DNA from: Sphingopyxis sp.
GTDB lineage: Bacteria > Pseudomonadota > Alphaproteobacteria > Sphingomonadales > Sphingomonadaceae
Length of the DNA stretch: 64,000 nucleotides
NCBI RefSeq assembly: GCF_050916055.1
Contig: NZ_CP051527.1
Span: forward strand, 2,737,066 to 2,801,065
Reading direction: 5' to 3'
The translations under genes were made by a program, and so were the position numbers. The notes under the pieces were generated by a model. It was not told the origin of the DNA. It made no database searches and was given only the letters and a program-made list of their open reading frames with translations. Of the stretch, positions 35,096 to 53,270 are shown piece by piece (the stretch's first letter is position 1; the number at the start of each line of letters is the position of its first letter).

Positions 35096-37798
35096 TCAGA
35101 AAGCCGTCCGGAAGCCGACGTAGAATCGCCGTCCGAGCAGATCGTAGGTCATCGTGTCGGTGTTCGCATCGGTAAAGCTCTGGATATAGGGCGCCTTGCG
35201 ATCGAACAGATTGTCGACACCGACCTGGAAGCGGGTCTTGTCGTCGATCTCAAAAGCGACCTGGAGATTGTGATAGAAGACGTTGGGGGTGCTGTAGCCG
35301 ATGTCACCCGGCGCCGCGTTGAAGTCGGTCGCCTTGCCGATCCACTGGGTCGACCAGGTCGCACTGACGCCGTCCTTTTCGGCGGTCAGCACACCATAGC
35401 CGCGCCATTTCGGATAGCCGCCGTTGCCGCCGCCGATGAAGCCGTCGAAATCGATCGGTGCGCCGCCCGGGAAGGGCAGCACGACATATTTGTTGAGGTA
35501 GGTCAGGTTGACGTCGAACGAGACATTCACGCTGCCGATGTTGTTATTATAGACGAGGCCGAGGTCGAGCCCGTTCATTTCCTCGCGGCCGGTGTTGATC
35601 GGCTGGGCGGACAGGAAGGTGACCTCGCCTGTCAGCGGACTGCGCGTAAAATCCTCGCAGAAAGGATGCGACAGATTCTGGCTCGCGTAGCAGATGCCGA
35701 GTTTGGTCGATCCGGGAATGGCGCGGATCGCATCCTTGATCTTGATGTCGAACCAGTCGGCGGTGAGCGACAGGCCCGGGATGAGCCCCTTCGGCGAGAT
35801 CACGGTGCCGACGGTCCAGGTCGTCGAGCTTTCGGGCTTCAGATTCTCGTTGCCGCCCACTGTCGTCAGGATCGTCGTGCCCAGCTGGACATAGTTCGCT
35901 GGCACGCCCGATGCCTGACAATTGGCGATTAGCGTCGCATTGCCACTCGTCGCATAGCGCGAGCACGGATCGGTCGTGGTCAGATTGCCTTCGGACACGC
36001 CGCCGAACAGTTCGGGGACGTTGGGAATTCGGAAGCCGGTGCCATAGGTGCCGCGCAGGCGGAAGCTGTCGTTGATAACCCAGTCGAGGCTCGCCTTATA
36101 GTTCCAGTCGCTGCCGAACAGGTCATAGTCCGAATAGCGCACCGCGCCGCCCGCCGTCAGCGCTTGGAAGAAGGGCGCATCGGCAAGGATCGGCACCGAC
36201 AGTTCGAGATAGGCCTCCTTCGCGGTGCTCGTTCCGGAGATCGGGTCCTGCTGGTTGGTGTTGGCAATACCGAGCACCGTCAGCGGATCGGGATCGCGCC
36301 AGCCCTTTTCCTTGCGATAGACAACACCCGCCGCGAAGGAGACGGGCCCCGCAGGCAGCTTGAACAGATCGCCGTTGAGATCAGCCGTAACCGTCGCTAG
36401 CTCGTTGCCGCCGCGGTCGCGCGAGGTGAAGAGGATATAATCGAGAACCTCGGGCGTCAGATCGCCGAAGCCGAGATAATCGGCGCAGGGAATCGAAGCC
36501 CCGGCCGCCAAGCTACATTTGCTGGTGTCGAGCGTGTTGGCGACGCGCTCGAGATTGGCGATGTTGGTCGACCCATCGACCGCCGTATTGCGGCCGAAGC
36601 TGCCCGCGACTTCCCAGCCCCAGTCGTTCGACAGCTTGCCGCGGAGGCCAAAGGTGCCCTGCCAGGTATCGGTTTCCTGAAAGAACTGGCGCGCACCCGG
36701 TTCGGCGAGGCGCCGCTGGATGAGGACGATATTCTGGCCGGTCGGGTTGGTGGGGTTGCTCGCCGCGATCGACAGGTTGCGCAGCGTGCCGGGCGTCGCG
36801 ATCTGGTTCGACTTGCGGAACGTGTAGAGGAATTCGCCGAACGCCTCGATATTGTCGGTCAGGTCATAGTCGGCGAAGAAGGCGGTGCTGACGCGCTCGA
36901 CGGGGCTGACGGCGTTGAGGAACGGGGCAGAATTGAAATTATGCTTCGCCGCGCTGTAGGGTTCGAAGAAATTTCCGTTGCCGCCGAGCACCTGGTTGAA
37001 GTTGATCTGCTGGCCGTTCGGCAGCACCGCGCGTCCGCCGATCGTCGATGCGCTGTTGACGCAGCCAAGTGTGCCGGGGGTGGTTTCGGCCAGCGAACAG
37101 GGCGCGCGGGTCGCCATGTTTACGGCGCTGGTCTTCTGGTAGGTTACCGCGGCCATGAAACCGCCGCGGTCGTTGCGCATGCCCCAGATCAGGTCTGCGG
37201 TGAAATCCGAGCCATCACCCTTTTCGGTGATCCCCTGCCGCGCGCTGATCCCAAGACCTTCATAGTCGGTCCGGGTGACGAGGTTGACGACGCCCGCCAT
37301 CGCATCGGCGCCATAGATCGCCGACGCGCCGTCCTTGAGGACGTCGGTGCGCGCGAGCGCGACGACCGGGATCATGTTGAGGTCGGGCGACGAGTTCGCG
37401 CCCGTGCCGCCGGCGACGAGGCGGCGGCCGTTGAGCAGCACGAGGGTGCGCTTGATGCCGAGACCACGCAGATTGACCTGCGCGGTGCCGTAGCCGTTGC
37501 CAGTCCAGTAGGCCGAAGTCTGGTTGCCCGCGAAGCCCGCATTGGCGGGGAGGCGCTGCAGCACCGTCTCGATATTCACGACCCCGGTGTTCTCGATCTG
37601 CTCGGCCGAAACGACCGTCGCCGGCCCAACGCCCGCGAGATCCTGCCGGCGGATACGCGACCCGGTCACCACGATATCGCTGCCGCTGCTCGCGCTATCC
37701 GCTCCGGCCTCGGGTGCCGACTCGCTTTGAGCGAGGGCTGGCGCCGAAACGCCCGCAAAAACCGCAGCGCCGGCAAGCAAAACTGTCCTGAACTTCAT
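35096..37798 (-). CDS. TonB-dependent receptor
   Basis: Signal peptide, TonB box DIVVTGSR, plug DVLKDGASAIYGADAMAGVVN, C-terminal NLFD...YVGFRTAF. Confidence 0.96.
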   Translation of the reverse strand: MKFRTVLLAGAAVFAGVSAPALAQSESAPEAGADSASSGSDIVVTGSRIRRQDLAGVGPATVVSAEQIENTGVVNIETVLQRLPANAGFAGNQTSAYWTGNGYGTAQVNLRGLGIKRTLVLLNGRRLVAGGTGANSSPDLNMIPVVALARTDVLKDGASAIYGADAMAGVVNLVTRTDYEGLGISARQGITEKGDGSDFTADLIWGMRNDRGGFMAAVTYQKTSAVNMATRAPCSLAETTPGTLGCVNSASTIGGRAVLPNGQQINFNQVLGGNGNFFEPYSAAKHNFNSAPFLNAVSPVERVSTAFFADYDLTDNIEAFGEFLYTFRKSNQIATPGTLRNLSIAASNPTNPTGQNIVLIQRRLAEPGARQFFQETDTWQGTFGLRGKLSNDWGWEVAGSFGRNTAVDGSTNIANLERVANTLDTSKCSLAAGASIPCADYLGFGDLTPEVLDYILFTSRDRGGNELATVTADLNGDLFKLPAGPVSFAAGVVYRKEKGWRDPDPLTVLGIANTNQQDPISGTSTAKEAYLELSVPILADAPFFQALTAGGAVRYSDYDLFGSDWNYKASLDWVINDSFRLRGTYGTGFRIPNVPELFGGVSEGNLTTTDPCSRYATSGNATLIANCQASGVPANYVQLGTTILTTVGGNENLKPESSTTWTVGTVISPKGLIPGLSLTADWFDIKIKDAIRAIPGSTKLGICYASQNLSHPFCEDFTRSPLTGEVTFLSAQPINTGREEMNGLDLGLVYNNNIGSVNVSFDVNLTYLNKYVVLPFPGGAPIDFDGFIGGGNGGYPKWRGYGVLTAEKDGVSATWSTQWIGKATDFNAAPGDIGYSTPNVFYHNLQVAFEIDDKTRFQVGVDNLFDRKAPYIQSFTDANTDTMTYDLLGRRFYVGFRTAF

Positions 37799-37855: not shown

Positions 37856-38007
37856 GGTCAACAGAAAATTGTCTTAAAGATCAATATCTTAGATGAAGAT
37901 ACACGACCCATAGCCGGTGAGTATAATACGCACCCGAAGCATCTACCCCTCACCGGAAAATGACTTTTTTTTGATGTCGCGCCTCGGCGCCCCAAATTGG
38001 CCCCGCC

Positions 38008-38526
38008 CTAAGCGGAAAAGATCGACGCCTTGCCCTGCATGTCGAACGCCATCACATCGAAAGCGTCCTGGCTCCCATCGGGCATTTCCATGCCCGGCGA
38101 GCCCCGCGGCATGCCGGGAACGGCGATCCCCCGGATGTTGCGCGGCTTGTCACGGAGCAGCTTTGCGACATGCGGCATCGGCACATGACCTTCGATCGCA
38201 TAGCCGGCAACGATCGCGGTGTGGCACGACGCCAGGTCGGGCGGAACGCCATAGCGTTCCTTCACTGCGGCCATGTCAGCGCGACTCTCGACAGTCACGT
38301 TATAGCCAGCCTTGCGTGCGATATCGGCCCACGCCTCGCAGCAGCCGCATTCGGGGTCGCGGTAAACGAGCATCGCCTGGCTCCCGCCGCTGCTTGCCGG
38401 CAAAGCGGCCCCCGCCGTATCCGTTCCGGCAGCAGGCCGCCGATCGCATCCAACAAGCGCGGCACCGCCTGCAACGGCGAACAAGCCAAGAAGGCTTCGC
38501 CGGCTGTAATTTGAGGTCGGCGTCAT
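38008..38526 (-). CDS. DUF411 metal-binding protein (CopG-like)
   Basis: SRRSLL leader with VGC, CGCCEAW, ASCHTA, IEGHVP, GIAVPGMP.GSPGME. Confidence 0.88.
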   Translation of the reverse strand: MTPTSNYSRRSLLGLFAVAGGAALVGCDRRPAAGTDTAGAALPASSGGSQAMLVYRDPECGCCEAWADIARKAGYNVTVESRADMAAVKERYGVPPDLASCHTAIVAGYAIEGHVPMPHVAKLLRDKPRNIRGIAVPGMPRGSPGMEMPDGSQDAFDVMAFDMQGKASIFSA

Positions 38527-38966
38527 TTTCGGTCCAATATTCGCTTCATCTGGTCGATCTCTGCCTTTTGGCCCGCAATGATGCCGCGGCACAATTCAAG
38601 CACCTCGGGGTCCGAGAGGCGGGCTTGCGCGCACATGAGGACAGCGCCCGAATGATGCGGGATCATCGACCGCAGGAAGGCCTGGTCGCCGATCGTGGTC
38701 TGCGTGCGAATGAGCCCGAAGCTGCCAAAGAAGGCGAGCGCCGCTCCGCCCAAAAGGAGGATGTTTCGGCGCTTGTCAGGAAACATGTCGGGCATGGCGA
38801 TGATCATCAGGACGACCATCGGCGCCACCATCATGAGCGTCATATAGGCCATGTTGAGATTGTTGTAGAAGCTCGACAGACGATCAATCATCACGAACAT
38901 GACGAGATACATGATAACGGCGCCGACGAGCGTTTGCCAGGCGAGGCTTCGATAAGCTGACTTCAC
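38523..38966 (-). CDS. DUF305 (CopM-like) protein with TM helices
   Basis: FLRSMIPHHSGAVLMC, II.GQ..EI..M; AGGAGA RBS before GTG. Confidence 0.8.
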   Translation of the reverse strand: MKSAYRSLAWQTLVGAVIMYLVMFVMIDRLSSFYNNLNMAYMTLMMVAPMVVLMIIAMPDMFPDKRRNILLLGGAALAFFGSFGLIRTQTTIGDQAFLRSMIPHHSGAVLMCAQARLSDPEVLELCRGIIAGQKAEIDQMKRILDRK

Positions 38967-38998
38967 GGCAATTCTCCTATCTGTTGCCCCGCCGCGAG

Positions 38999-40201
38999 TT
39001 AGAACCAGACCCGCACCCCTGCGACCAGGCTGACGCTGCTTGGGTCTTCCCCTGCGGCCCGCGTGAAACGGGCCGTATCGCCGACCTTGCGTTCCCATTC
39101 GACTCCGACATAGGGGGCGAATTCCTTGACGATTTCGTAACGCAGGCGCAGCCCGAGCTCCACGTCGGACAAGCCGGACCCGACCCCGATTTCGGGAACA
39201 TCTTGTAACGCGAAATTCAGCTCGGCTATCGGCTGGAGGATCAGTTTCTGGGTGATGCGCTGGTCATAATAGCCTTCAAGCCGGCCGTGCAGATCGCCCT
39301 TGTTCGACAAGAACAGGGCGCCCTCGACCTCGAACCAATAGGGCGCGAGCCCCTCGAAGCCCACTGTCGCATAGGTGCGATCGGGACCGGGTCCGAGATC
39401 CTGCCGAATGCCGGCCTGGGCGTTGAAATAGGGGCCGACGGCACGGCTGTAGAGCAATTGCGTCTCGGTGCCTTCGATGCCCTCGCCAAAAACCCCCTCG
39501 CCTTCGCTTTTGACGGTGAGCCGATTGATATCGCCACCATACCAGGCTTCGCCGTCCCAGCGAAAGCCGTCATGCCCTTTGCGCGCCTGATATTCGGCGA
39601 GGTTGAAACTGATGAAGGCGATTTTCTGCGCGCCATTTTCTTCCATCATCGCATGGCGCGAATGCTCCATTTCGGCCTTGGGATAGATGCGGTCGGCATA
39701 CCAGTCGCTGGGCGGCGCCGGCGCGGCGGCATCGCCCGGAGGCAAGTCGGTGCCGCTCGCCCCGCCCATTCCGGCCATGCCTTCCATCAGTTCCATCGTT
39801 GCGTCCTTCGGCATGCAATGGCCCATCTTGGCATGTTCGGGCGGACAGTCGGGATCGGCCGGGGCCACCGTGCCTTGGTCCATCGCGCCCATGTCCGGCA
39901 TTTCCGCGCTCGAGCCGCTGTCCGAAGACTTTGCCTCGGGCGTGCAATGGCCCATCGCCGCATGCTCGGGCGCGCAACTTGCGTCCTTGGGTTTCATATC
40001 CATGCCGCCATGATCCATCTCGGGCATCGGCGCGGGTTCGGATTGCGGCGGCGGAGCCGGCTGCGGCTTGGCAGCTGGCTTCTTCGGCTCGGCCGGCATG
40101 GTCATGCCCGGCATCGACGAATGATCCATCGACTGCGCGGTGGCGGGAACGGCGAAAGCGAGCGCGGCGGTGCCGGCGAGGAAAAGCGAAGCGCGGGTCA
40201 C
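38999..40201 (-). CDS. copB: Copper resistance protein B
   Basis: Met/His-rich N-terminus, WYGGDINRL, GLAPYWFE, GLRLRYEI..EFAPYVG, C-terminal RVWF. Confidence 0.96.
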   Translation of the reverse strand: MTRASLFLAGTAALAFAVPATAQSMDHSSMPGMTMPAEPKKPAAKPQPAPPPQSEPAPMPEMDHGGMDMKPKDASCAPEHAAMGHCTPEAKSSDSGSSAEMPDMGAMDQGTVAPADPDCPPEHAKMGHCMPKDATMELMEGMAGMGGASGTDLPPGDAAAPAPPSDWYADRIYPKAEMEHSRHAMMEENGAQKIAFISFNLAEYQARKGHDGFRWDGEAWYGGDINRLTVKSEGEGVFGEGIEGTETQLLYSRAVGPYFNAQAGIRQDLGPGPDRTYATVGFEGLAPYWFEVEGALFLSNKGDLHGRLEGYYDQRITQKLILQPIAELNFALQDVPEIGVGSGLSDVELGLRLRYEIVKEFAPYVGVEWERKVGDTARFTRAAGEDPSSVSLVAGVRVWF

Positions 40202-42048
40202 TCTGCGTCTCCCTTCGGACGGACGCTGACGACGCGCATCATCCCGGCGTGCATATGGTAGAGCATATGACAGTGGAACGCCCAGTCACCGAGCGCGTCG
40301 GCGGTGAAATCGAAGCTGGCGGTGCCTCCGGGCTGAACGAGAACCGTATGCTTGCGCGGCGAGCGATCGCCCTTGCCCGTGACCAGTTCGAAGAAATGGC
40401 CATGGAGGTGGATGGGATGGCTCATCATCGAATCGTTGATGAGGTTGATCCGCACCCGCTCACCCTCGATGAAGGGGATCGGCTCATGATGGTCGGACAT
40501 CTTGACGCCATCGAACGACCACATGAACCGCTCCATATTGCCGGTCAGATGAATGTCGAGCGAGCGTTCGGCGGCGCGCACATCGGGATTGCGCTCGAGC
40601 GCCACCAGATCATGATAGGTGAGCACCTTGTGCCCGACATTTTCGAGCCCCTGCCCCGGCTCGCCCATGCGATCGACCGGCATCGGCGAGATGGTCTGGA
40701 CACTCGGGTCGCGTTTGACCTGCGGGGCGACGTCGAAATCGCGCATGCTGTGCTGCATTCCGCCACCCGATCCATGATCCATCCCCGCCATCGCGCCGCC
40801 TTCGGCCGCGGGCGTGCAATGGCCCATCTTGGCATGTTCGGGCGAGCAGGCAGGATCGCTTGCGGGCATTGGCATGGCCCCCGTGGCGCCACCGCCCGAA
40901 TGGTCCATTCCCGCCATGGAACCGCCTGACATGTCCATGTCGCCCATCCCCATGTCCTTCATGGTCGCGAGCGGGCGTTCGCGCAGCGGCGGGACGTCGG
41001 CGGCCATGCCGGCGCGCGGCGCAAGCGTCGCACGCCCCATGCCCGAGCGGTCGTTGGCTTCGGCGACAAGCGTATAGGCGCGGTCCTCGACCGGCGTGAC
41101 AATGACATCGTAAGTTTCCGCAACGGCGATCTGGAACTCGTCGATTTCGGTTGGGACGACGTTGAGCCCGTCGGCCTGCACGACGGTCAGCCTGAGGCCC
41201 GGAATGCGCACGTTGAAGATCGTCATCGCCGAGGCGTTGATGATCCGCAGCCGCACCCGCTCGCCGGGATTGAAGAGCGCGGTCCAATTGTCGCGCGGGC
41301 CATGGCCGTTGACGAGGAAGCTATAGGTCGATCCGTTGACATCGGCGACGTCGGTCGGATCCATGCGCATCTTGCCCCATTCGATGCGTTCCTTCAGTGA
41401 TTGGTCCTTGCCGGCCAGGAGACCGGAAAGCGTCTGTCGCTGCATGTTGAAATGGCCGGGGTTGACCTTCAACTTGCGGAAGATCGCCTCGGGAGACAAT
41501 TGGCTGTGGTCGGACAGGACGACGACATGCTCGCGGTCAAAGCCGATCGGATCGGGACCTGCGGGATCGATGACGATCGGGCCATAATGGCCAAGCTGCT
41601 CCTGCAGTCCCGAATGGCTGTGATACCAATAGGTCCCCGACTGGACGACGGGGAATTCGTAAACGAAGTTTGAGCGCGGCTTGATGCCGGGGAAGCTGAC
41701 GCCCGGGACGCCATCCATCTGGAACGGCAGGATTAGGCCATGCCAATGGATCGAGCTGTCCTCGTCGAGATCGTTGACGACCGTGAGGCGCGCGGTCTGG
41801 CCTTCCTTCAGGCGAACGAGCGGCGCGGGCACCGTCCCGTTGATCCCGATCGCTCGGCTGACCTTGCCGTCGATCCGCATCGTCTGGCGCGCGATACGAA
41901 GGGTGATGTCATTGCCCGACACCGTCGGCAGCGGCGCGACGATGCCTGGCGACACCGATTGGGCCCACGCCGGAAACCAGGGCGCCAGCGCGGCCACTGT
42001 CCCGCCGCCCAATGCACCCGTCACGAAACGACGCCTGTCTATCTGCAT
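40198..42048 (-). CDS. copA: CopA-family multicopper oxidase
   Basis: Tat leader DRRRF; HWHG, YWYHSH, HPIHLHGH, HCHMLYHMHAGM. Confidence 0.97.
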   Translation of the reverse strand: MQIDRRRFVTGALGGGTVAALAPWFPAWAQSVSPGIVAPLPTVSGNDITLRIARQTMRIDGKVSRAIGINGTVPAPLVRLKEGQTARLTVVNDLDEDSSIHWHGLILPFQMDGVPGVSFPGIKPRSNFVYEFPVVQSGTYWYHSHSGLQEQLGHYGPIVIDPAGPDPIGFDREHVVVLSDHSQLSPEAIFRKLKVNPGHFNMQRQTLSGLLAGKDQSLKERIEWGKMRMDPTDVADVNGSTYSFLVNGHGPRDNWTALFNPGERVRLRIINASAMTIFNVRIPGLRLTVVQADGLNVVPTEIDEFQIAVAETYDVIVTPVEDRAYTLVAEANDRSGMGRATLAPRAGMAADVPPLRERPLATMKDMGMGDMDMSGGSMAGMDHSGGGATGAMPMPASDPACSPEHAKMGHCTPAAEGGAMAGMDHGSGGGMQHSMRDFDVAPQVKRDPSVQTISPMPVDRMGEPGQGLENVGHKVLTYHDLVALERNPDVRAAERSLDIHLTGNMERFMWSFDGVKMSDHHEPIPFIEGERVRINLINDSMMSHPIHLHGHFFELVTGKGDRSPRKHTVLVQPGGTASFDFTADALGDWAFHCHMLYHMHAGMMRVVSVRPKGDAE

Positions 42049-42079: not shown

Positions 42080-42108
42080 TCATACGCGGCACGATCGTCC
42101 GCCCCTCA
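42080..42108 (-). promoter_or_regulatory. ECF (CnrH-type) promoter of copAB
   Basis: TGAGGGG-N15-CGTATGA. Confidence 0.8.
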
Positions 42109-42147
42109 CCCTCGCAGGCGAAAATCGCCAAATGTCCCGCGATGCGT

Positions 42148-42732
42148 TTACTCCGCCGCGTGGGTGGTCGTTTCGCCCAGCAGAGCCTTCAATTTCGCAC
42201 GGGCCCGGTGAAGCCGCGTCTCCACGGTCTTTTCGCTGACTTGCAGCAGCTCGGCGGTTTCCGACTGGCTTAGATCCTCAACGCCGCGAAGGATGAGGAC
42301 CTCGCGCAGATTGGGCGCTAGGCGGGACATGGCGGCGCGAACGCGCTCGAGTTCGGTGCGGTCTGCCGCCTCGGCGTCGGGCCCGGGGCCTTCACTCGCG
42401 ACATCGTGCGCGCTTTCGAGGGGCAGGGCGCGAGAGAAAAAAGACCGAACCGCACGCCGCCGCGCCCAGTCGCGGCATTTGTTGAGCGCGATACGGGATA
42501 TCCAGACCTGGAAGGGCCGGTCGGCGTCATAGCGGCCAAGCGCCCCAAAGCCCGCAACAAAGCTTTCCTGCGTCAGGTCCATCGCCTCGTCGGGATCGCC
42601 GATATTGTTGCGAATCAGGCGAAACACGGGCGCCTTGTAGCGACTGAGAAATTCCCGATAGGCCTGCTGCTGTCCGGCCCGGGCAAGTGCGGCGAGCTCG
42701 CGATCGCTACATTGCGCGAGATCGAGGCTCAC
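42148..42732 (-). CDS. ECF sigma factor, CnrH/NccH-like
   Basis: DLTQESF, WISRIALNKCRDWARRRAVR, TVETRLHRAR; third gene of a Y-X-H-like triad. Confidence 0.9.
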   Translation of the reverse strand: MSLDLAQCSDRELAALARAGQQQAYREFLSRYKAPVFRLIRNNIGDPDEAMDLTQESFVAGFGALGRYDADRPFQVWISRIALNKCRDWARRRAVRSFFSRALPLESAHDVASEGPGPDAEAADRTELERVRAAMSRLAPNLREVLILRGVEDLSQSETAELLQVSEKTVETRLHRARAKLKALLGETTTHAAE

Positions 42733-43172
42733 CGCGCATCGGCGGTCAGCGCCTTGACCACGCTCTTGTCGAACATCGCGGCCTGGTCGCGATCAAGAAC
42801 GACGCGCATCGCGAACAGATGCTGGAGCGTTTCCTTCTGCAATTCGCCCATCACGCGGTGGGTCTCGTCGATCGCCTCGGTGACGCGGGGTCCATAGCCA
42901 TGCTCGGCTTCGATCGCCTGCGCGAGCCGGATATTGGCGGCGCGCATATCGAGCTCGAGCGCATCGCGCCGCTCGGCGAATTTCGCCTCGATCCGGTCGA
43001 TCTTTACCTGCTGCGCGGACGAGAGCTTCAGCTCGCGATGCAGCAAAGCGTGCAATTCGGTCTCGCTTGCGCGCGGTGTCTCGACGATGAGCCGCCCGGC
43101 GAGCACGCCGGCGAGCGCGGCGATGAAAGCGACCAGACCGAAAAGCAGCAAACGGCGCGACGACGTCATCAA
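42729..43172 (-). CDS. Periplasmic heavy-metal sensor, CnrX/NccX-like
   Basis: One TM anchor; LHALLH, E at +17, QHLFAM (H at +56 from that E, M at +4): same spacing as the CnrX metal ligands. Confidence 0.88.
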   Translation of the reverse strand: MMTSSRRLLLFGLVAFIAALAGVLAGRLIVETPRASETELHALLHRELKLSSAQQVKIDRIEAKFAERRDALELDMRAANIRLAQAIEAEHGYGPRVTEAIDETHRVMGELQKETLQHLFAMRVVLDRDQAAMFDKSVVKALTADAR

Positions 43173-43432
43173 CGCGAATCCAGGAGGGTCGAGGGGGCCA
43201 GCGGGCTGGCCGGAATGAGCGGCGTGATCGGGCTCGCGGCCACGGCCGGCGGAACGATGGCGCTGCCGACGAAGAACCCGCCGCCGAGCGACACGAAAGC
43301 GGCGAGCGCCATCATGCGCCGCATCGCCGACGCCTCGCGGAGCCGTGCCGACAGCGCGACGAGGACACGCTCGTCGAGCGTGTCCAGTGCGCTCGGCACC
43401 TTCGGTTCATTCAAAATCCGGAGTTCGTCCAT
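43169..43432 (-). CDS. CnrY/NccY-like anti-sigma factor
   Basis: 87 aa, single TM helix, C-terminal PLAPSTLL; first gene of the triad. Confidence 0.75.
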   Translation of the reverse strand: MDELRILNEPKVPSALDTLDERVLVALSARLREASAMRRMMALAAFVSLGGGFFVGSAIVPPAVAASPITPLIPASPLAPSTLLDSR

Positions 43433-43460
43433 CGGCCTTTCCTGCCAGTCCATCCATAGA

Positions 43461-43489
43461 TCATACGCGCATGATCCCATCACCCCTCA
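43461..43489 (-). promoter_or_regulatory. ECF promoter of the cnrYXH-like operon (autoregulation)
   Basis: TGAGGGG-N15-CGTATGA, both boxes identical to those of the copA promoter. Confidence 0.8.
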
Positions 43490-43520
43490 GAAATAATCCA
43501 ACAAGGCGAAACCAATTTTG

Positions 43521-43549
43521 TGAGGGCCGCGCGGCTGGTTTGCGTATTA
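43521..43549 (+). promoter_or_regulatory. ECF promoter of copCD
   Basis: TGAGGGC-N15-CGTATTA. Confidence 0.75.
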
Positions 43550-43578
43550 GCAGGACAGACCCGCAATTGGAGGTTTTT

Positions 43579-43962
43579 ATGTTCAAGTCGTTTCTCCCCT
43601 CTGTCACCGCGGCCGTAGCGCTGCTTCTCGTGCCGGGCGTCGCAAGCGCCCACACCAAGCTCGTCGGCTCGACGCCGGCCGCGAATTCAACGGTTTCGAA
43701 GGTGACTTCGGTCAATTTGCAGTTCAACGAGAAGGTTATCGCCTCGACGGTGAAGGCCGAACTGGTGATGACCGGGATGCCCGGCATGGCCAATCACGCT
43801 CCGATGAAGATCCCCACCACCTCCATGATGGGCAAGGGCGGCAAATCGATGATGCTGATGGTGAAGCGCGCGCTCGTTCCCGGCACCTATAAGGTCAAAT
43901 GGTCGGCTGCGGGCGCCGACACGCACCGTATGGGTAGCGAATTCAGCTTCACCGTGAAGTAA
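43579..43962 (+). CDS. copC: Periplasmic copper-binding protein
   Basis: Signal peptide, mature N-terminal His (ASA-HTKLVGSTP), Met-rich loop, ADTHR. Confidence 0.93.
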   Translation: MFKSFLPSVTAAVALLLVPGVASAHTKLVGSTPAANSTVSKVTSVNLQFNEKVIASTVKAELVMTGMPGMANHAPMKIPTTSMMGKGGKSMMLMVKRALVPGTYKVKWSAAGADTHRMGSEFSFTVK

Positions 43963-43969
43963 AAAGAAG

Positions 43970-44911
43970 GTGGCAGATCTCCTGCTGATGGGTGTCAGGT
44001 TCGCGCTGTTCGCGAACCTGATGCTTATTGCGGGGCTTGCCGCTTTCTCACTTTATGCGCTCGGACCCGACGAACGGACGTCAGGCGTCGGAGCGCTCTT
44101 CGGGCGCCCGCAGTTTGGGCTCTGCGTCTCGGGCCTGATCCTGTCTTTTGCCGGCATGGCGGTGTTGACCGCGAGCATGCAGGGCGTCGGGGTCTTCGCT
44201 ATCGACCCCGAGATGTTTCTGACGATGGTCCGGGAGACCGACGTCGGCACCGCATGGCTTGTGCGCATGTTCGCGCTGCTGGTCGCCGGGGCGGCGAGCT
44301 TCTGGCTTGGCCGCAATCCCGTCGCTGCGGCATCGGTCCTGAGCGTCGCCGGCTCGGCCGGGCTGGCAACATTGGTCTGGTCGGGCCACGCCGGCGCGTC
44401 CGAAGGTATCGTCGGCACCGTGCATCGCGCCAATGACGCGATCCATATGATTGCCGCGGCCGTCTGGTTCGGTGCGATTGCCGCCTTTCTGCTGCTCCTT
44501 CGCCCCGGCGACCCACCTGGGACGGAAAGGGTCGCGCTTGCCGCGCGAAGCCTCGACCAGTTCGCGCGCGTCGGGACGCTGTGCGTGCTCGTGATCGCCG
44601 CGACCGGACTGGTGAACAGCCAGATTATCATCGGAGTCGAGAATGTCGGGCGATCGATCGTCTCGCCTTATGGTCAGCTTCTCGTCGCCAAGCTCATCCT
44701 TTTCGCCGCGATGCTCGCCCTCGCCGGGGTCAACCGCTGGCGACTTACGCCGGCGTTGCAGGCATCGATCGCCAGCCCCGACGAAATAGGCGCCGATTCG
44801 AGTCTCGCCGTGTCGGCGATGCGCCGCAGCCTCGTGCTCGAAGCGTCCGCGGGACTTGCCATTCTCGCGCTGGTCGCATGGTTCGGAACATTGGAACCCT
44901 TTGCCGATTGA
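43970..44911 (+). CDS. copD: Copper resistance inner-membrane protein
   Basis: WSGHAG, HMIAAAVWFG, YGQLLVAKL, NRWRL, GTLEP. Confidence 0.9.
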   Translation: MADLLLMGVRFALFANLMLIAGLAAFSLYALGPDERTSGVGALFGRPQFGLCVSGLILSFAGMAVLTASMQGVGVFAIDPEMFLTMVRETDVGTAWLVRMFALLVAGAASFWLGRNPVAAASVLSVAGSAGLATLVWSGHAGASEGIVGTVHRANDAIHMIAAAVWFGAIAAFLLLLRPGDPPGTERVALAARSLDQFARVGTLCVLVIAATGLVNSQIIIGVENVGRSIVSPYGQLLVAKLILFAAMLALAGVNRWRLTPALQASIASPDEIGADSSLAVSAMRRSLVLEASAGLAILALVAWFGTLEPFAD

Positions 44912-44944
44912 CGGGGTCCGGGTGGCAGGAGGAAAGCACGAGCG

Positions 44945-45622
44945 ATGTCAGATTTGCAGGACAGGAACCCAAGATTTACGCCTGCGGCCGGCTATCATTT
45001 CCTCACGCCTTTCTACGACGCCGGCGTCGCGATCACGACGCGCGAGCGCCGGTGGCGCGGCCGGCTGGTCGAGCTTATGGCGCCGGCGCCCGACGACATC
45101 ATTCTCGATGTGGGTTCGGGCACCGGCAATCTCGCGTTGGCGATCGCGCGGCGCGGCGGAGGCGCGCGCTATCTCGGGATCGATCCAGACGATGCTGCCA
45201 CCCGAATCGCACGAGATAAGACAGCCCGGCTCTCGCCCCAGCCGGACTTTCGCGTCGGATTCTTCACGGCCGCGAGCATCGCCGCCTGGCCGATGCCGAC
45301 TAAAGTCACAATCTGCCTCGTTCTTCATCAGGTCGGCCTCGCCGAAAAGGCCCGCCTGCTCCGCGAGGCCTGGCTTTGCCTCGCACCTGGCGGGCAACTT
45401 TATATCGCGGATTATGGCGAGCAGCGCAGCCGCCTGATGCGGATCCTGTTCCGGCTGACGATCCAGCAGCTGGACGGCGTGGCCGATACCCAACCCAACG
45501 CCGATGGCTGTCTACCGGCGCTCATCGGCGAAGCGGGATTTGAGACTTTATGCGAGGAGCCGGCGTTGAAGACGGTGACGGGCGCAATTTCGATCATGTC
45601 TGCGCGCAAACCCATGGCCTGA
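44945..45622 (+). CDS. Class I SAM-dependent methyltransferase
   Basis: ILDVGSGTG, LVLHQ, LAPGG...ADYG. Confidence 0.9.
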   Translation: MSDLQDRNPRFTPAAGYHFLTPFYDAGVAITTRERRWRGRLVELMAPAPDDIILDVGSGTGNLALAIARRGGGARYLGIDPDDAATRIARDKTARLSPQPDFRVGFFTAASIAAWPMPTKVTICLVLHQVGLAEKARLLREAWLCLAPGGQLYIADYGEQRSRLMRILFRLTIQQLDGVADTQPNADGCLPALIGEAGFETLCEEPALKTVTGAISIMSARKPMA

Positions 45623-45640
45623 GGCGTATGAGCAAAAGCG

Positions 45641-45669
45641 CGAGGGCCTGGCCTGCTGGCTGCGTATCA
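45641..45669 (+). promoter_or_regulatory. ECF promoter of the Cu-ATPase
   Basis: CGAGGGC-N15-CGTATCA. Confidence 0.72.
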
Positions 45670-45777: not shown

Positions 45778-48099
45778 ATGCAGGAAGATCATCACGCGGC
45801 GGTCGAGGATAACGCAACGGTCGATCCGGTTTGCGGCATGACGGTGGATCCCGCAACAACGTCGCATCGCGCGACCCATGCGGGCTTGGACCATTATTTC
45901 TGCAGTGCGGGCTGCCTTGCCAAATTCGAGGCCGACCCCGAGCGCTACGCGGCAACGCGGGAAGCGGCACCGGCGATTGCCGCCGAGGGCGCGATCTGGA
46001 CCTGCCCGATGCACCCGGAGATCCGGCGCTCCGGCCCCGGAAGCTGCCCGATCTGCGGCATGGCGCTCGAACGCGTCATGCCCGAAGCGGTCGCGGGGCC
46101 GAGCGAAGAATATCGCGACATGCGACGTCGTTTCTGGATCGGGCTCCTGCTCGCCCTTCCGGTGCTCGCGCTCGAGATGGGCGGCCATCTGACCGGCCTT
46201 CATCAATATGTAGACCGCTCGACGAGCAACTGGATTCAGATGTTGCTCGCGACGCCCGTCGTTCTGTGGGCGGGCTGGCCCTTCTTCGAGCGGGCATGGC
46301 TCTCGGTCCGAAACAAGAGCCTCAACATGTTCACCCTCATCGCGATGGGGACGGGCGTCGCCTGGGCCTACAGCATGGTCGCGGCCCTCCTGCCCGGGAT
46401 ATTCCCCGGTGCGTTTCGCGCCGCCGACGGTTCGGTCGCGGTCTATTTCGAAGCGGCAGCCGTTATCACGGTGCTTGTCCTGCTGGGACAGGTGCTCGAG
46501 CTCAGGGCGCGCGAGACGACAAGCGGCGCAATCCGCGCACTTCTCGACTTGACGCCCAAGCTTGCGAGGCGGGTGCGCGGCGACGGGAGCGACGAGGAAG
46601 TCGCACTTGAGGATGTCGCGGTCGGTGATGTGCTGCGCATCCGTCCGGGCGAGAAGGTCCCGGTCGACGGCATCGTGGTCGAAGGCCGCGGCACGGTCGA
46701 TGAGTCGCTGGTCACGGGCGAATCGATGCCCGTCACAAAGGAGGCCGGCGCCGCGCTGATCGGGGGAACGATCAATCAGACGGGCGGGCTGCTGATGCGC
46801 AGCGAGAAGGTCGGCCGCGACACGATGCTCGCCCGCATCGTGCAAATGGTTGCCGACGCGCAGCGCAGCCGGGCGCCGATCCAGCGCCTCGCCGACACCG
46901 TTTCTGGCTGGTTCGTTCCCGGCGTCATCGCCGTTGCTGTTGCTGCGTTTATCGTCTGGTCGATTCTCGGACCGGCGCCCGCGATGGCCTATGGCCTGAT
47001 TGCGGCCGTCTCGGTGCTGATCATCGCCTGTCCCTGTGCGCTCGGCCTCGCAACGCCGATGTCGATCATGGTTGGCGTCGGACGCGGCGCCGAAGCCGGG
47101 GTGCTGATCAAGAATGCCGAAGCGCTCGAACGAATGGAAAAGGTCGATACGCTCGTCGTCGACAAGACGGGGACCCTTACCGAGGGCAAGCCCTCGGTCG
47201 TTGCCATCGAAGTCGCAGATGGGTTCGACGAAAATGACCTGCTCGCGATCGCAGCCAGCCTCGAGCGCAGCAGCGAGCATCCTCTTGCGCTCGCGATCGT
47301 CAAGGCGGCCGAGGAGCGGGGTCTCGCGCTCGTCGAGCCTTCAGGGGTCGATCAGCCGGTGGGCAAAGGGATCGTCGGCTCGGTCGAAGAGAAGGCGATT
47401 GTCCTCGGCAATGCTGCCTTTCTTGAAGAATATGACGTTGACCTCGCGGGGCTTGCCGCGGCGGCCGACCGTCTTCGCGCCGAGGGCGCGACCGCGATCT
47501 ATATCGCCGTCAACGGCCAAGCGGCCGGCGTCATCGCGATTGCCGATCCCGTCAAGGCAACGACAAGCGAAGCCCTCTCTGCCCTGCGCGACGCGGGCAT
47601 AAGGGTCATCATGCTGACCGGCGACAATCGCGTCACCGCCGAGGCGATCGCGCGGCGCCTCGGTATTGCCGACGTCGAGGCCGATGTCCTGCCGGACCAG
47701 AAGAGCGCCGTCGTCCAGCGGCTCCGCGCAGAAGGCCGGATCGTCGCCATGGCGGGGGACGGGGTCAACGACGCGCCCGCGCTCGCCGCCGCCGATGTCG
47801 GCATTGCGATGGGCTCGGGAACCGACGTCGCGATCGAAAGCGCGGGCGTCACCTTGCTGCGCGGCGATCTTCTCGGCATCGTTCGGGCGCGGCACCTCAG
47901 CCATGCGACGATGTCGAATATCCGGCAGAACCTCTTCTTTGCCTTCGCCTATAATGTTGCGGGCATCCCGATCGCAGCGGGCGCGCTCTACCCGCTGTTC
48001 GGACTTCTTCTATCGCCGATCATCGCCGCTGCCGCGATGGCGCTCTCCTCGGTCAGCGTCATCGCCAATTCGCTGCGGCTGCGATTCGTGAAAATCTGA
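45778..48099 (+). CDS. P1B-type copper-translocating ATPase with YHS and TCPMHP domains
   Basis: DPVCGM...YFCSAGC, WTCPMHP, CPICGM, TGES, CPC, DKTGT, GDGVND, YN and MALSS. Confidence 0.96.
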
Positions 48100-48649: not shown

Positions 48650-49048
48650 TTAGACCTGCTCGAAGGCCGAAATGATCGGGCAGTGGACCGTATCGGCGGC
48701 GGCGCATTGGCGCGACAGGCCGACAAGCGCGCGCCGCGCCGCATCGAGTTCGGCAATCGTTTTCTCGATGGCGGTGATGCGCGCGTCGGCAAGCGCGCGC
48801 GCGCGGGTCCGATCGGTGGAGGAATCGAGCTCGAGCAGTTCGCCGATCTCGGCGAGCGTAAATCCTGCCGCCTGCGCCGACTTGATGAAACGCAGGCGCC
48901 CGAACACGGCCTCATCATAGCGGCGCACGCTTCCTTGCATGCCGCCTCCTTCACGCCGGCCGGGAACCGGAAGGAGGCCCTTGCGCTGGTAGAAGCGAAT
49001 GGTCTCGACATTCACGCTCGCGCGTTTTGCAAGCTGTCCGATGGTCAT
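48650..49048 (-). CDS. MerR-family regulator (two C-terminal Cys)
   Basis: MTIGQLA...VETIRFYQRKGLL, RLRFIKSAQAAGFTL.EI, QCAAADTVHCPII. Confidence 0.92.
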   Translation of the reverse strand: MTIGQLAKRASVNVETIRFYQRKGLLPVPGRREGGGMQGSVRRYDEAVFGRLRFIKSAQAAGFTLAEIGELLELDSSTDRTRARALADARITAIEKTIAELDAARRALVGLSRQCAAADTVHCPIISAFEQV

Positions 49049-49061
49049 GTCACGCAAGGCC

Positions 49062-49092
49062 TTGACTCCGTACTATGGTACGCAACCTATAT
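49062..49092 (+). promoter_or_regulatory. MerR-type promoter/operator resembling merOP
   Basis: TTGACT-19 bp-CTATAT with dyad CGTAC-TATG-GTACG. Confidence 0.85.
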
Positions 49093-49128
49093 GAGAGGGA
49101 GCATAAGGGAATCAAGAAAGGTAGAATC

Positions 49129-49947
49129 ATGAATACCCAGCTCCAAGACGCTCGAAGCAGGCAATCCGCGCCCGGCGCACAGGCGGTCGGACGGCCTCGC
49201 GCGACGATCTACCGCATGGTGATGGAGCATCATATCTGTCCCTATGGCTTGAAGGCCCTACATCTCTTGCGCAGCCGGGGCTATGAGGTCGAAGACGTCT
49301 GGCTGAGGACGCGCGAGGAAACCGATGCCTTTAAGGCGAAGCATGGCGTCGCGACGACGCCGCAGACTTTCATCGAAGGCGAGCGCATCGGCGGTCACGA
49401 CGATTTGCGGCGCCATTTGGGTCTAAAGGTTCGAGATCCCAAGGCGCTCACCTACACGCCGATCATCGCGCTATTTTCGATCACCGCCCTGATGGCGCTG
49501 GCAGCGAGCCAGGCTGTGGCGGGCACGCCGTTTACCGTCCGCGCCGCCGAGTGGTTCATCGGCTTCAGCATGGCGCTGCTGGCCTTTCTGAAGCTGCGCG
49601 ACATCGAGAGCTTCTCGAGCATGTTTCTGAACTATGACCTTCTCGCAAAGCGCTGGGTTCCCTATGCCACCATCTATCCCTTCGCCGAGGCCCTTGCCGG
49701 CATCTTGATGATTTCGGGCGCGCTCAGCTGGATTTCGATCCCGGTCGCGCTCTTCATCGGGACCATCGGCGCCGTTTCGGTGTTCAAGGCGGTCTATATC
49801 GACAAGCGCGAGCTCAAATGCGCGTGCGTCGGCGGCGACAGCAACGTTCCGCTCGGCTTCATATCGCTGACCGAGAATCTGATGATGATCGCGATGGCCG
49901 TGTGGATGCTGCTCGCGCCCGCCGCCATGGTGATGGGGCAGCGGTAG
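49129..49947 (+). CDS. Glutaredoxin-MauE/DoxX fusion membrane protein
   Basis: CPYG, TTPQTFI.GERIGG.DDL, then MauE-like TM region with YPFAE and CACVGG. Confidence 0.85.
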   Translation: MNTQLQDARSRQSAPGAQAVGRPRATIYRMVMEHHICPYGLKALHLLRSRGYEVEDVWLRTREETDAFKAKHGVATTPQTFIEGERIGGHDDLRRHLGLKVRDPKALTYTPIIALFSITALMALAASQAVAGTPFTVRAAEWFIGFSMALLAFLKLRDIESFSSMFLNYDLLAKRWVPYATIYPFAEALAGILMISGALSWISIPVALFIGTIGAVSVFKAVYIDKRELKCACVGGDSNVPLGFISLTENLMMIAMAVWMLLAPAAMVMGQR

Positions 49948-50485: not shown

Positions 50486-50752
50486 ATGAAGATGATATTT
50501 GCGACGGCCGCAGCGCTTGCGGCTATCACCACGGCCCCGTCCTTCGCCCAGGAGGCGGCAGGCGGCCATTATGAATGGCAGTTCCGTCAGGTTCCTGGCC
50601 CGAACAAGTCGGGCATCGCGCCGCGCGAGCGCGTCTGGGTCAAAGACAAGACCGCACAGATGGCCAATTGCGACTGCGACATGATGAAGGCCGACGCGGC
50701 CGACTGCATGAAGGCCATGCACGGACTGCATTCATCACCCGCCAAGGGCTGA
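50486..50752 (+). CDS. Small secreted Cys/Met/His-rich protein
   Basis: GAGG RBS, signal peptide ending SFA, MANCDCDMMK..ADCMKAMH. Confidence 0.7.
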   Translation: MKMIFATAAALAAITTAPSFAQEAAGGHYEWQFRQVPGPNKSGIAPRERVWVKDKTAQMANCDCDMMKADAADCMKAMHGLHSSPAKG

Positions 50753-50761
50753 CGGTCCCGT

Positions 50762-50783
50762 CCCCCGGCCTGCGGGCCGGGGG
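50762..50783. other. Intercistronic GC hairpin (9-bp stem, TGCG loop)
   Basis: CCCCCGGCC-TGCG-GGCCGGGGG; no U tract, so not called a terminator. Confidence 0.45.
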
Positions 50784-50814
50784 GCATAAGCTCATCATCT
50801 CTCGAGGGGGACAT

Positions 50815-52044
50815 ATGCGCATATTCCTAGCAGCAGCGATGCTGATCCCGATATCGTCCGCGCTCCATGCCGAGCCGATGACGCTCGACGCCGCGGTCCG
50901 CCTGGCGGAGACGCAGGCGCCGGAACTGCGGGGACGCGAAGCGGGGATCGACGCGGCCGAGTCTTCGGCGATCGCGGCCGACCGGCTGCCCGATCCGAAA
51001 CTCGACCTTGCGATCAAGGATTTCCCGGTCACCGGTCCCGACGCGGGGCGATTCAATCGCGACGATTTCACGATGCAGGTCATCGGCATCAGTCAGGACT
51101 TTCCCAATCCCGCCAAGCGCCGGGCGCGCGCAACGCGCGCGCAAGCCGACATCGGGATTGCGCGGGCCGATGAAGCGGTCACCGCGCAGGACGTCCGGCT
51201 GGCGACCGCGCTCGCCTGGGTCGACCTCTTCTATGCGAAGAAGCGCCTGAAAGAACTCGACCTGCTCGATGCCGGTCTTGAAGATTTGCAAGCAACAGTC
51301 ACCGCGCGCCTTGCGAGCGGCGCGGCGCGTCCGGCGCAGGCGCTCGAACCCGAACAGCTGCGCGCCGCGGTCAGCGACCGCCGCAGCACCCTCGCCGCCG
51401 AGATCGCCCGCGCCCGCGCGCAGCTTGGGCGCTACACCGGCGACCGGGCCGCTGATACCGCGGGTGACCCGCCGCCGCCCATGGTCGATGCATCGCTTCT
51501 GCGCGCGCGCATCGACAGCTTGCCGCGGCTCCGCGCGCTCGACGCCCGCGCCCTCGCGGCCGATGCCGAGACCGGCCTCGCCCGTGCCGACAAGCGGCCC
51601 GACTGGAGCGTCAATGCGGCCTATGGGCGGCGCGAGCCCAATTATGGCGATCTTGTCACGCTCGGCGTCACCATCGACCTCCCCTTCTTCTCGAAGAAGC
51701 GGCAGGACCCCAAGATCGCGGCCCGCGCCAGCGAAGCGACGCGCGCGCGTCTCGACCGCGAGGCGGCCAAGCGCGACATCGCGGCGGCACTCGACGCTGA
51801 TCTGGCCGATCATCGCATGCATCACGAGCAGCTGGGCAATGCGCGGTCGCGGCTGGTGCCGCTCGCGAAGAAGCGCGCCGAACTCGACCTCGCGAGTTAC
51901 GCCGCCGGAAAACTCGATCTCGGAGCCGCGCTGCTGTCGACGCTCGCGTTGGCGGAAGCCGAAGTCGATGCGCTGGCGCGCGAAGCCGAGGTGGCGCGCG
52001 ACGCGATCCGGATCAATTATATCTATGGGGAGACGGGGCAATGA
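50815..52044 (+). CDS. TolC-family outer-membrane efflux protein (CusC-like)
   Basis: Signal peptide, LPDPKL, ISQDFP, TIDLPFF; first gene of the RND trio. Confidence 0.9.
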   Translation: MRIFLAAAMLIPISSALHAEPMTLDAAVRLAETQAPELRGREAGIDAAESSAIAADRLPDPKLDLAIKDFPVTGPDAGRFNRDDFTMQVIGISQDFPNPAKRRARATRAQADIGIARADEAVTAQDVRLATALAWVDLFYAKKRLKELDLLDAGLEDLQATVTARLASGAARPAQALEPEQLRAAVSDRRSTLAAEIARARAQLGRYTGDRAADTAGDPPPPMVDASLLRARIDSLPRLRALDARALAADAETGLARADKRPDWSVNAAYGRREPNYGDLVTLGVTIDLPFFSKKRQDPKIAARASEATRARLDREAAKRDIAAALDADLADHRMHHEQLGNARSRLVPLAKKRAELDLASYAAGKLDLGAALLSTLALAEAEVDALAREAEVARDAIRINYIYGETGQ

Positions 52045-53270
52045 CCGATGCAACTTCAGCGGCGCGGTGGCGCACCGGGATTTTGGCGGCTGTGCTGATT
52101 GCGGGCGGCGGCGGCTATTGGATCGGGCAGCGCGGCCAGGGCGAAGCGCCGACCGGAGCGACGAGCAACGCGCGCAAGATCCTCTATTACTACGACCCGA
52201 TGTTTCCGAACCAGAAGTTCGACAAGCCCGGCAAGTCGCCTTTCATGGATATGCAGCTCGAGCCCAAATATGCCGATGAAGGCGGCGGCGCCACGGCCCC
52301 CGGCATATCGGTCGACCCCGCGGCGCGGCAAAGCCTCGGAATAAGGGTGGTCGCGGCTGAAATGGGCAGTCTCGCTGCAACCTTCGACGTAAATGGCACG
52401 GTGGATTTCAACCAGCGTGACGTCGCGATCGTCCAGGCGCGCTCGGGCGGTTTCGTCGAACGCGTCTACCGGCTCGCGCCGGGCGACGTGATCCGCGCCG
52501 GTGCGCCGATCGCGGACCTGCAATTGCCCGAATGGGGCAGCGCGCAGACCGAATATCTGAGCGTCAAACGGCTCGGCAGACCCGACCTCACCGCTGCCGC
52601 CCGGCAGCGCCTTCGCCTGATGGGGATGCCCGAAGCGGTAATCGCGCAGGTCGATCGCAGCGGACGCACCAGCGGCACGGTGACGGTGCGCGCGCCGATC
52701 GGTGGCGTCGTCCAAACGCTGGGTGCGCGCGCCGGCGTGACCTTGGCCGAAGGCCAAACCCTCGCCGAAATCTCGGGCCTCGGAACGGTCTGGCTGAATG
52801 CCGCGCTCCCCGAAGCACAATCGGGCGCGGTGCAGGTCGGCCAGCGCGCGACCGCCAAGCTCACCGCCTTTCCGGGCGAGGCTTTCGGCGGCCGCGTCGT
52901 GGCCATTCTGCCAACGGCGGCAGCGGACAGCCGGACGCTGACCGTGCGCGTCGAGCTTGCCAACCGCGGCGGGCGCCTGCGCCCGGGCATGTTCGCGAGC
53001 GTCGCACTGGGCGGCGATGCGAGCCCCGCGCTGCTTGTGCCGAGCGAAGCGGTCATCCGCACCGGCACGCGCAGCATCGTCATGCTCGAGACGGGCGACG
53101 GGCGCTATCATCCTGCCGAAGTCCAGACCGGGCGCGAGGGCGGCGGCAAGACCGAGATATTGCGCGGCCTTGTCGCGGGCGAGAAGGTCGTTGCCTCGGG
53201 TCAGTTCCTCCTCGATTCCGAAGCGAGCCTGACCGGCATCGCCGTCCGGCCGCTGGAGGATGCGAAATGA
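52041..53270 (+). CDS. cusB: RND periplasmic adaptor subunit
   Basis: YYDPMFP...[28 protein letters not shown]. Confidence 0.92.

Follow-up and report, generated by a model that had tools for sequence, protein, structure and literature searches.

The genes of bacterial copper resistance (cop, cus and the copA-ATPase genes) are usually regulated by the two-component systems CopRS and CusRS and by CueR, a member of the MerR family. A 2019 review of metal-responsive extracytoplasmic function (ECF) sigma factors describes copper resistance as mostly under one- and two-component control, and names CnrH for nickel and cobalt, and CorE-type factors and CarQ for copper (PMC6851896); a 2023 survey of copper signalling systems considered CorE as the sole ECF factor (PMC10141476). 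CorE of Myxococcus xanthus (ECF44/ECF238) is copper-responsive and drives a multicopper oxidase and P1B ATPases (PMC6851896, PMC3107203). The CnrYXH system, encoded on plasmid pMOL28 of Cupriavidus metallidurans CH34, responds to nickel and cobalt, and its output is the resistance-nodulation-cell division (RND) pump cnrCBA together with cnrT. The nickel-cobalt-cadmium system NccYXH controls another RND pump, nccCBA. Here we analysed a 64-kb stretch of a Sphingopyxis sp. genome (contig NZ_CP051527.1; 63.6% G+C), hereafter the window, in which all coordinates are counted from position 1, and in which three coupled genes in the same Y-X-H order stand beside a set of copper-resistance genes. We consider this module to be probably an alphaproteobacterial, copper-dedicated relative of CnrYXH signalling, acting by the mechanism proposed below.

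The three genes lie on the minus strand: Y (43432..43169) encodes an 87-aa single-pass membrane protein, the presumed anti-sigma factor; X (43169..42729) encodes a membrane-anchored periplasmic metal sensor of the CnrX/NccX family (PF13801); and H (42732..42148) encodes an ECF sigma factor homologous to CnrH, with Sigma70_r2 and r4_2 domains. The stop of Y overlaps the start of X (TGATG), as the stop of X overlaps the start of H (GTGA), and a gap of 99 bp separates H from copA, confirming the earlier note on this DNA, which had described coupled anti-sigma, sensor and sigma genes in this order directly upstream of copAB. The start of Y was taken as the ATG at 43432, which has a GGAAAGG ribosome-binding site 5' of it; the mechanical open reading frame (ORF) opens at a GTG at 43483, which was not adopted because it lies upstream of the predicted -10 element. 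On the same strand follow copA (42048..40198), encoding a periplasmic multicopper oxidase with three Cu-oxidase domains, and copB (40201..38999), encoding outer-membrane copper resistance protein B (PF05275, E = 7e-89). Divergent from these, on the plus strand, are copC (43579..43962; PF04234), copD (43970..44911; PF05425), a gene for a class I S-adenosylmethionine (SAM)-dependent methyltransferase with Pfam methyltransferase domains (44945..45622), and the gene of a P1B-type copper-exporting ATPase with N-terminal YHS and HMBD domains (45778..48099). The CopABCD set, comprising the CopA oxidase, outer-membrane CopB, periplasmic CopC and inner-membrane CopD, is complete. Both copA (TIGR01480, 810 bits against a cut-off of 479) and the ATPase gene (TIGR01511, 594 against 397) pass copper-specific NCBIfam models, and the ATPase translation contains CPC, YN and MALSS, which we take to be the P1B-1 signature of Cu(I)/Ag(I) pumps. 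All these genes form the core of a metal-resistance island, whose metal genes occupy ~33.6 to 60.7 kb of the window.

Both the sigma factor and the sensor are homologous to their Cnr counterparts. Among solved structures the best match of H was CnrH (4cxf_A; E = 1.2e-34, 123 bits, residues 8-186), and the next was SigW with 68 bits, 55 lower. H is a minimal ECF factor of 194 aa (sigma-2 and sigma-4 only) that ends right after region 4, and its two cysteines, C8 and C86, are isolated. CorE, as H would do on the reading proposed below, switches on multicopper oxidase and P1B ATPase genes as an ECF sigma factor; however, CorE has no anti-sigma factor and binds copper in the cytoplasm through a C-terminal Cys-rich extension with a CxC, whereas H lacks a C-terminal extension and is coupled to X and Y.

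X matched PF13801 (E = 1.6e-14, 54.5 bits, cut-off 29.2) and, from end to end, both NccX (4clv; E = 7e-17, the best match) and CnrX (E = 2e-15; ~30-35% identity), and it has an N-terminal hydrophobic membrane anchor at residues 8-30. The CnrX ligands H42, H46, E63, H119 and M123 align with H41, H45, E62, H118 and M122 of X, residues that were invariant in 87 of 87 cop-linked sensors compared; NccX shares these ligand positions. Beyond this site, X carries M76 (present in 78 of the 87 sensors), H91 (85), H105 (86) and M108 (86), at positions where CnrX has L, P, E and A, respectively, and NccX too is without the extra His and Met residues. The earlier note had listed an H, H, E, H, M set at CnrX spacing, joined by an HxxM (H105-x-x-M108) and another His (H91), and these residues are present.

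An exhaustive search of 1.8 billion cluster representatives gave 464 matches at E ≤ 0.001, and among the full-length sequences of the best 150, which were aligned, the HxxM of the third helix was common down to ~30% identity across the wider PF13801 sensors, while H91 varied. Because the HxxM is common in the wider family and absent from both CnrX and NccX, it is these two that are the unusual members, and the structurally studied Ni/Co sensors may be atypical of their family. Clusters of His and Met are typical at periplasmic copper sites, for instance in CusF, CopC and PcoC, and we hypothesize from the residue pattern that the extra His and Met residues of X could form a second copper site. 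In CnrX the sensor domain has no methionine besides Met123 (PMC6851896), against three methionines in the cop-linked sensors.

The third component, Y, was found to be a different matter. The earlier description of the module as CnrYXH-type holds for X and H, which are homologous to CnrX and CnrH, but not for Y. A phmmer search of Y against the PDB, which holds CnrY in 4cxf, gave no match; an hhalign comparison of a 68-sequence Y alignment with CnrY scored 10.7, where 30 shuffled controls scored 6-15; and NF033790, the NCBIfam model for CnrY/NccY, matched neither the window Y nor two relatives at E ≤ 10, while the CnrY control scored 139 bits. Membership of Y in the CnrY/NccY family was therefore rejected at the sequence level. 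Y agrees with CnrY in position, in length (87 vs 95 aa) and in its one-transmembrane topology, and since no sequence signal connects the two, it is better regarded as a positional and topological analogue than as a CnrY family member. Its cytoplasmic part, of ~37 residues, contains two amphipathic segments that are conserved; a single transmembrane helix follows, and the periplasmic tail closes with SP..P...LAPSTLL, which is strongly conserved. By tblastn, it is kept upstream of X in 66 of 80 related loci (described below). Y is possibly the representative of a new anti-sigma family.

The likely output of the module can be read from a bipartite element. Four copies, each with 15 bp between two heptamers, had been listed in the earlier note and are exactly as written: TGAGGGG-N15-CGTATGA in the H-copA gap (42080..42108, minus strand), the predicted sigma-H promoter of copAB; the same heptamers at 43461..43489 (minus), the predicted autoregulatory promoter of YXH; TGAGGGC-N15-CGTATTA at 43521..43549 (plus), the predicted promoter of copCD, divergent from that of Y; and CGAGGGC-N15-CGTATCA at 45641..45669 (plus), a predicted weaker promoter of the ATPase gene. 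That list, presented as a four-promoter regulon, missed a fifth site, TGAGGGG-N15-CGTATTA at 37952..37924 (minus), which is the predicted promoter of an operon beginning with a TonB-dependent receptor gene (37798..35096, minus), and relatives have still more targets. The core GAGGG-N16-CGTAT has five exact matches in the window against a mean of 0.11 in 100 dinucleotide shuffles (maximum 1). With a position-weight matrix (PWM) trained on homologous sites from other genomes, exactly five sites reached the threshold of 12, with scores of 27.8 (receptor, the highest in the window), 25.3 (YXH), 23.9 (copCD), 23.7 (copAB) and 18.1 (ATPase gene), while the maximum in 20 shuffles was 17.4; the ATPase site is thus marginal on its own. 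From the end of the CGTAT core to the start codon there are 31-34 nt for Y, copA (34 nt to its ATG) and copC, and 111-128 nt for the two other units (111 nt to the ATG of the ATPase gene, 128 nt to the receptor gene). No copy was found at the CusCBA-like RND operon of the island (50575..56401, plus; its adaptor has an HMBD domain) or at other island genes, either with one mismatch allowed or with the PWM at spacer offsets of -1, 0 and +1 bp. A lone one-mismatch match at 15550, between two alcohol-dehydrogenase genes, is within chance expectation.

The element resembles what is known of the CnrH group, apart from its spacing. The ECF reclassification places CnrH in ECF291 (formerly ECF20). The ECF Hub consensus for this group, as quoted in a 2026 C. 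metallidurans study, is ATACGC / CCCTCA (PMC13492112), of which the window motif TGAGGG...GCGTAT is the reverse complement. The mapped CnrH promoters of pMOL28, cnrYp (AAGGG-N17-CGTAT(A)) and cnrCp (GAGGG-N17-CGTAT(A)), have the same elements, (G/A)AGGG and CGTAT, but are spaced by N17 rather than by the N16 found in the window and in 228 related sites. As in cnr, one predicted promoter lies before Y, where it would be autoregulated, and a second right after the sigma gene. We infer that the GAGGG-N16-CGTAT motif is the promoter recognized by H.

A profile scan with the sensor alignment, using one genome per species, found at least 356 relatives, of which the best 80 loci (±10 kb) were analysed. 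All 80 belong to Sphingomonadales, with sensor identities of 54-95%, and their gene content follows that of the window: H in 79, copA and copC in 74 each, copD in 71, copB in 70, the ATPase gene in 40 and the receptor in 26. Across the 1.4 Mb of these loci, GAGGG-N16-CGTA occurs 228 times, where ~17 matches would be expected from base composition. As many as 214 of the 228 precede a module gene by no more than 450 nt (Y/X 75, copA 65, copC 53, receptor 11, ATPase/methyltransferase 8, DUF305 2), and the remaining 14 are mostly at contig ends or before genes that tblastn did not recognize. Expressed by locus, the motif precedes Y/X in 75 of 80, copA in 65 of 80, copC in 53 of the 74 with copC, and the receptor in 11 of the 26 with a receptor. 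Its median distance to the start of the homology match is ~62-65 nt for Y, copA (62 nt) and copC. Bases that the search did not fix are also conserved, with T before GAGGG in 88% of sites, G before CGTA in 99% and T after CGTA in 90%, while the 13 central spacer positions are essentially random, giving the consensus TGAGGGgt-N13-tGCGTAT. In the syntenic locus on plasmid pMC4 of Sphingopyxis indica (~81% DNA identity), all five motifs are kept and their spacer sequences differ.

The YXH/cop layout thus recurs in hundreds of sphingomonad genomes, and it is common on plasmids: a plasmid collection held ~70 sphingomonad and Caulobacterales records, against 9 Cupriavidus/Ralstonia cnr/ncc records. 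A plasmid of Sphingomonas sp. NIC1 (L086, 3161..13852) has the motif about nine times in 16 kb, mostly before annotated copper genes; the targets include Y, copC, the copA position, the ATPase gene, DUF4396, DUF305 and a four-helix-bundle copper-binding (Csp-like) protein, so that some species have a larger regulon than the one seen in the window. On Asticcacaulis and Caulobacter plasmids the motif precedes copA, the ATPase gene and genes of copper-binding proteins, with an N17 spacer in Caulobacter. Linkage to copper genes was seen in every alphaproteobacterial locus inspected. The suggestion that a CnrYXH-type system had been "rewired" to copper is therefore misleading: with at least 356 relatives and ~70 plasmids, the cop-linked form is a large conserved clade, and it is CnrX and NccX that are the exceptions with regard to the HxxM.

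The comparative data also bear on the weakest of the five sites. In 21 related loci, as in the window, the ATPase gene has an element of the form CC(G/A)AGGG-N...-TTGCGTATC upstream of it and is followed by a SnoaL/NTF2 gene but by no cueR; in the related locus L041 the motif lies upstream of the methyltransferase gene instead. The weak ATPase site of the window is therefore rescued by conservation. Where cueR follows the ATPase gene, the latter usually comes right after copD and has no ECF-type element, with two Sphingomonas loci (L086 and L087) as partial exceptions that have both cueR and the element, at lower scores. This near-complementary pattern suggests that control of the ATPase gene may have been exchanged between CueR and the ECF sigma factor within the clade.

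On the mechanism that we propose, Y would hold H at the membrane, and its conserved periplasmic tail would contact the membrane-anchored, CnrX-fold sensor X. Excess periplasmic copper would bind X at the CnrX-type His3/Glu/Met site, possibly helped by M76, H105 and M108 (and H91), whereupon the X-Y complex would change conformation and H would be released to direct RNA polymerase to TGAGGG-N16-GCGTAT promoters. Five units would be driven in this way: YXH itself, by positive feedback; copAB with the DUF305 and DUF411 genes; copCD with the methyltransferase gene; the ATPase gene; and the receptor/PepSY operon. The module would thereby do the same job as CopRS, CusRS and CueR, namely the copper-dependent induction of copABCD and of a Cu(I) ATPase, and CopS and CusS likewise sense periplasmic copper; however, it would use the release of a sigma factor, not a phosphorelay or the distortion of DNA. 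Compared with cnr, it shares the Y-X-H order of coupled genes, the CnrH-homologous sigma factor and the membrane-anchored sensor with its five ligands, but differs in its host (Alphaproteobacteria), in its output (copAB, copCD, the Cu-ATPase and a TonB receptor), in its Y, in the extra residues of X, and presumably in its inducing metal.

Beneath this proposal lie the homology of X and H, the order and coupling of the genes, and the excess, placement and cross-species conservation of the motif. The earlier note had spoken of a transmembrane ECF copper-sensing system; a CnrX/CnrH-type module and a promoter motif that marks a copper regulon are well supported by homology and comparative genomics. 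The inducing signal we infer to be copper from the regulon, since its targets are everywhere specific to copper and no motif accompanies the RND, cation diffusion facilitator (CDF) and MerR-linked genes of the island.

Several points weigh against a copper-dedicated relative of CnrYXH. Y shows no sequence relationship to CnrY and is presumed to be the anti-sigma factor from its place, length and one-transmembrane topology; the score of the ATPase site is low (18.1 against the shuffle maximum of 17.4); the CusCBA-like RND operon of the same island is without the motif; many relatives also carry cueR, so that the ECF system is not the sole copper regulator of the clade; and a full-text literature search, with subscription journals outside it, found no study of a CnrX/CnrH-type copper regulator. 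Moreover, X keeps the complete ligand set through which CnrX is activated by nickel and cobalt, the equivalent of Met123 included, and copper-bound CnrX was reportedly crystallised by Pompidor and co-workers in 2008. Since the CnrX-type site is fully retained, and since CnrX can hold copper in crystals although cnr is described as a Ni/Co system, the metal specificity of X cannot be read from its ligands. The same facts, with the invariance of the five ligands in all 87 sensors and the presence in the island of RND, CDF and MerR-type determinants for other metals, speak for a rival in which architecture and regulon are the same but X senses nickel, cobalt or zinc, or several metals, or else copper-induced damage to the envelope or to protein folding; in this last case X would behave more like CpxP, Spy and ZraP, chaperone-type relatives with its fold, and the cop genes would be induced indirectly. 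We think this unlikely: the motif precedes only copper-related genes, in the window as in all the related loci examined, and is absent from RND and CDF genes, and the conserved extra His and Met residues of the cop-linked sensors are typical of copper sites and are not found in CnrX or NccX.

The motifs could also be sigma-H promoters for basal or condition-dependent expression (growth phase, general stress), with copper sensed by MerR/CueR-type regulators or by systems encoded elsewhere, and the two MerR-family genes of the island, the cueR that follows the ATPase gene in many relatives, and a view limited to 64 kb of the genome all leave room for this. Yet the sigma gene of every locus has a homologue of a dedicated periplasmic metal sensor translationally coupled to it, and both MerR genes of the window score under the CueR threshold and are paired with other genes, one with a glutaredoxin/MauE gene and one with a CDF gene, and we give this explanation a low probability. 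That the motif is no promoter, but has been repeated by chance or is an operator bound by some unrelated protein, we hold to be highly improbable. The ATPase site, barely above the shuffled background, would fit such a view; however, five matches were found where 0.11 were expected, across 80 genomes the motif keeps its position and orientation while its spacers vary freely, the bipartite form and ECF-type spacing match the mapped CnrH promoters, and one copy precedes the sigma operon itself, as expected of an autoregulated ECF factor.

Returning to the copper-dedicated relative of CnrYXH, what is new here is a widespread and conserved branch of the CnrXH family that is linked to copper genes. 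It differs by its own candidate for the anti-sigma factor, a promoter spacer shorter by 1 bp and additional His and Met residues in its sensor. The module is probably a general way of sensing copper, and is absent from current reviews. In public annotation its three genes are given as "hypothetical protein", "periplasmic heavy metal sensor" and "RNA polymerase sigma factor", and in a paper on a Sphingobium genome, genes of the "periplasmic heavy metal sensor" kind are simply listed (PMC7355620). The following joint reading goes further, and we see its chances as even: X-Y-H would be a third copper-sensing paradigm beside two-component systems and cytoplasmic sensors of the MerR/CsoR type, in which periplasmic copper is read by a CnrX-fold sensor that has gained a His/Met site, the anti-sigma factor belongs to a new family of miniature size, and the entire cop regulon of most Sphingomonadales, and of some Caulobacterales, is under the ECF sigma factor; CnrX would be a derived side branch of an ancestrally copper-linked family. 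If the role of the module is confirmed, it would be the main copper switch of the sphingomonads, a large and environmentally important order of pollutant degraders in which it is often plasmid-borne together with catabolic genes, and a new anti-sigma family would be defined. Because X combines the same five ligands with extra His and Met residues, it offers a natural comparison for how metal specificity is tuned on the CnrX fold. The compact pair of sigma factor and promoter, with its predictable regulon, could serve as a part for copper biosensors, and copper regulons would become annotatable straight from sequence in hundreds of genomes.

Other regulators in the window were also considered. 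No pair of an OmpR-type regulator and a kinase was found among the window ORFs scanned, in accord with the earlier statement that no CopRS/CusRS pair is present; CopRS as in the cop clusters of Pseudomonas and Cupriavidus was thus not seen, nor was any pair annotated as CopRS/CusRS in the plasmid loci examined. The only kinase-like pieces of the window are a PAS-domain ORF (11493..12215, plus) and an HWE histidine-kinase fragment (12337..12657, plus), which stand in tandem and look like a split or frameshifted sensor kinase gene. A CueR in the window was not established, both MerR-family genes (48650..49057 and 56819..57226, both minus) falling under every NCBIfam equivalog cut-off. The first, 550 bp downstream of the ATPase gene, is closest to the mercury MerR model (115 bits, below the cut-off), has a C-x7-C-P near its C-terminus, and is divergent from a glutaredoxin-MauE/DoxX fusion gene (49075..49947, plus); a MauE and MerR pair lies directly beside Y-X-H on a Blastomonas plasmid as well (L088, 6473..7691), and the two may form a recurring companion module. 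The second is closest to CueR (122 bits against a cut-off of 147) and is divergent from a CDF cation-efflux gene (57295..57933, plus).

Several gene calls around the module deserve comment. The N-terminal RRRF of CopA is read as a twin-arginine signal, a tentative assignment. Downstream of copB are a DUF305 gene (PF03713; ORF 38523..39098, minus) and a DUF411 gene (PF04214; within ORF 38008..38592, minus), both with uncertain start codons. The receptor of the predicted fifth regulon unit has Plug and beta-barrel domains and is followed in the same orientation by two PepSY_TM membrane protein genes (PF03929; 34381..35085 and 33650..34429, minus), an order that recurs in a related locus (L001) and in many of the 80. 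The idea that this receptor is an OprC-like copper importer was unsupported, as its PDB matches covered only the generic N-terminal plug region and included no substrate-specific relative such as OprC. A homologue of the methyltransferase occurs in 23 of the 80 loci, and the place between copD and the ATPase gene is kept in many relatives; in the loci of the SnoaL type it is directly upstream of the ATPase gene; a second class I SAM-dependent methyltransferase gene with a similar domain profile lies at 61670..62335 (minus). An antisense ORF of 269 aa over X and Y (42687..43496, plus), chosen by a crude caller based on G+C content at third codon positions (GC3), was rejected as a gene, since the products of the minus strand match their families significantly and their synteny is conserved. 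Its GC3 is as high as that of real genes, and at 63.6% G+C, ORF length and GC3 alone are misleading.

The metal genes appear to be part of a mosaic integrated island. The window contains a tyrosine integrase gene with an Arm DNA-binding domain (6029..7306, plus), an IS4/5 transposase fragment (10319..10750, plus), a truncated IstB gene (30319..30639, plus) and a large ORF with a weak integrase match (28400..30433, minus); no tRNA genes were found in the 64 kb. At the island edge are two candidates for metal transport: an FTR1-type permease of 721 aa fused to cytochrome c domains (57995..60160, minus), and a small ORF whose MerT-like match is weak and falls below the threshold (60271..60669, minus). 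Finally, a 900-aa UvrA-like ABC ATPase with UvrA DNA-binding and ABC domains (17339..20041, plus) is encoded among dehydrogenase genes, and looks like a UvrA paralogue rather than the product of a canonical repair gene.

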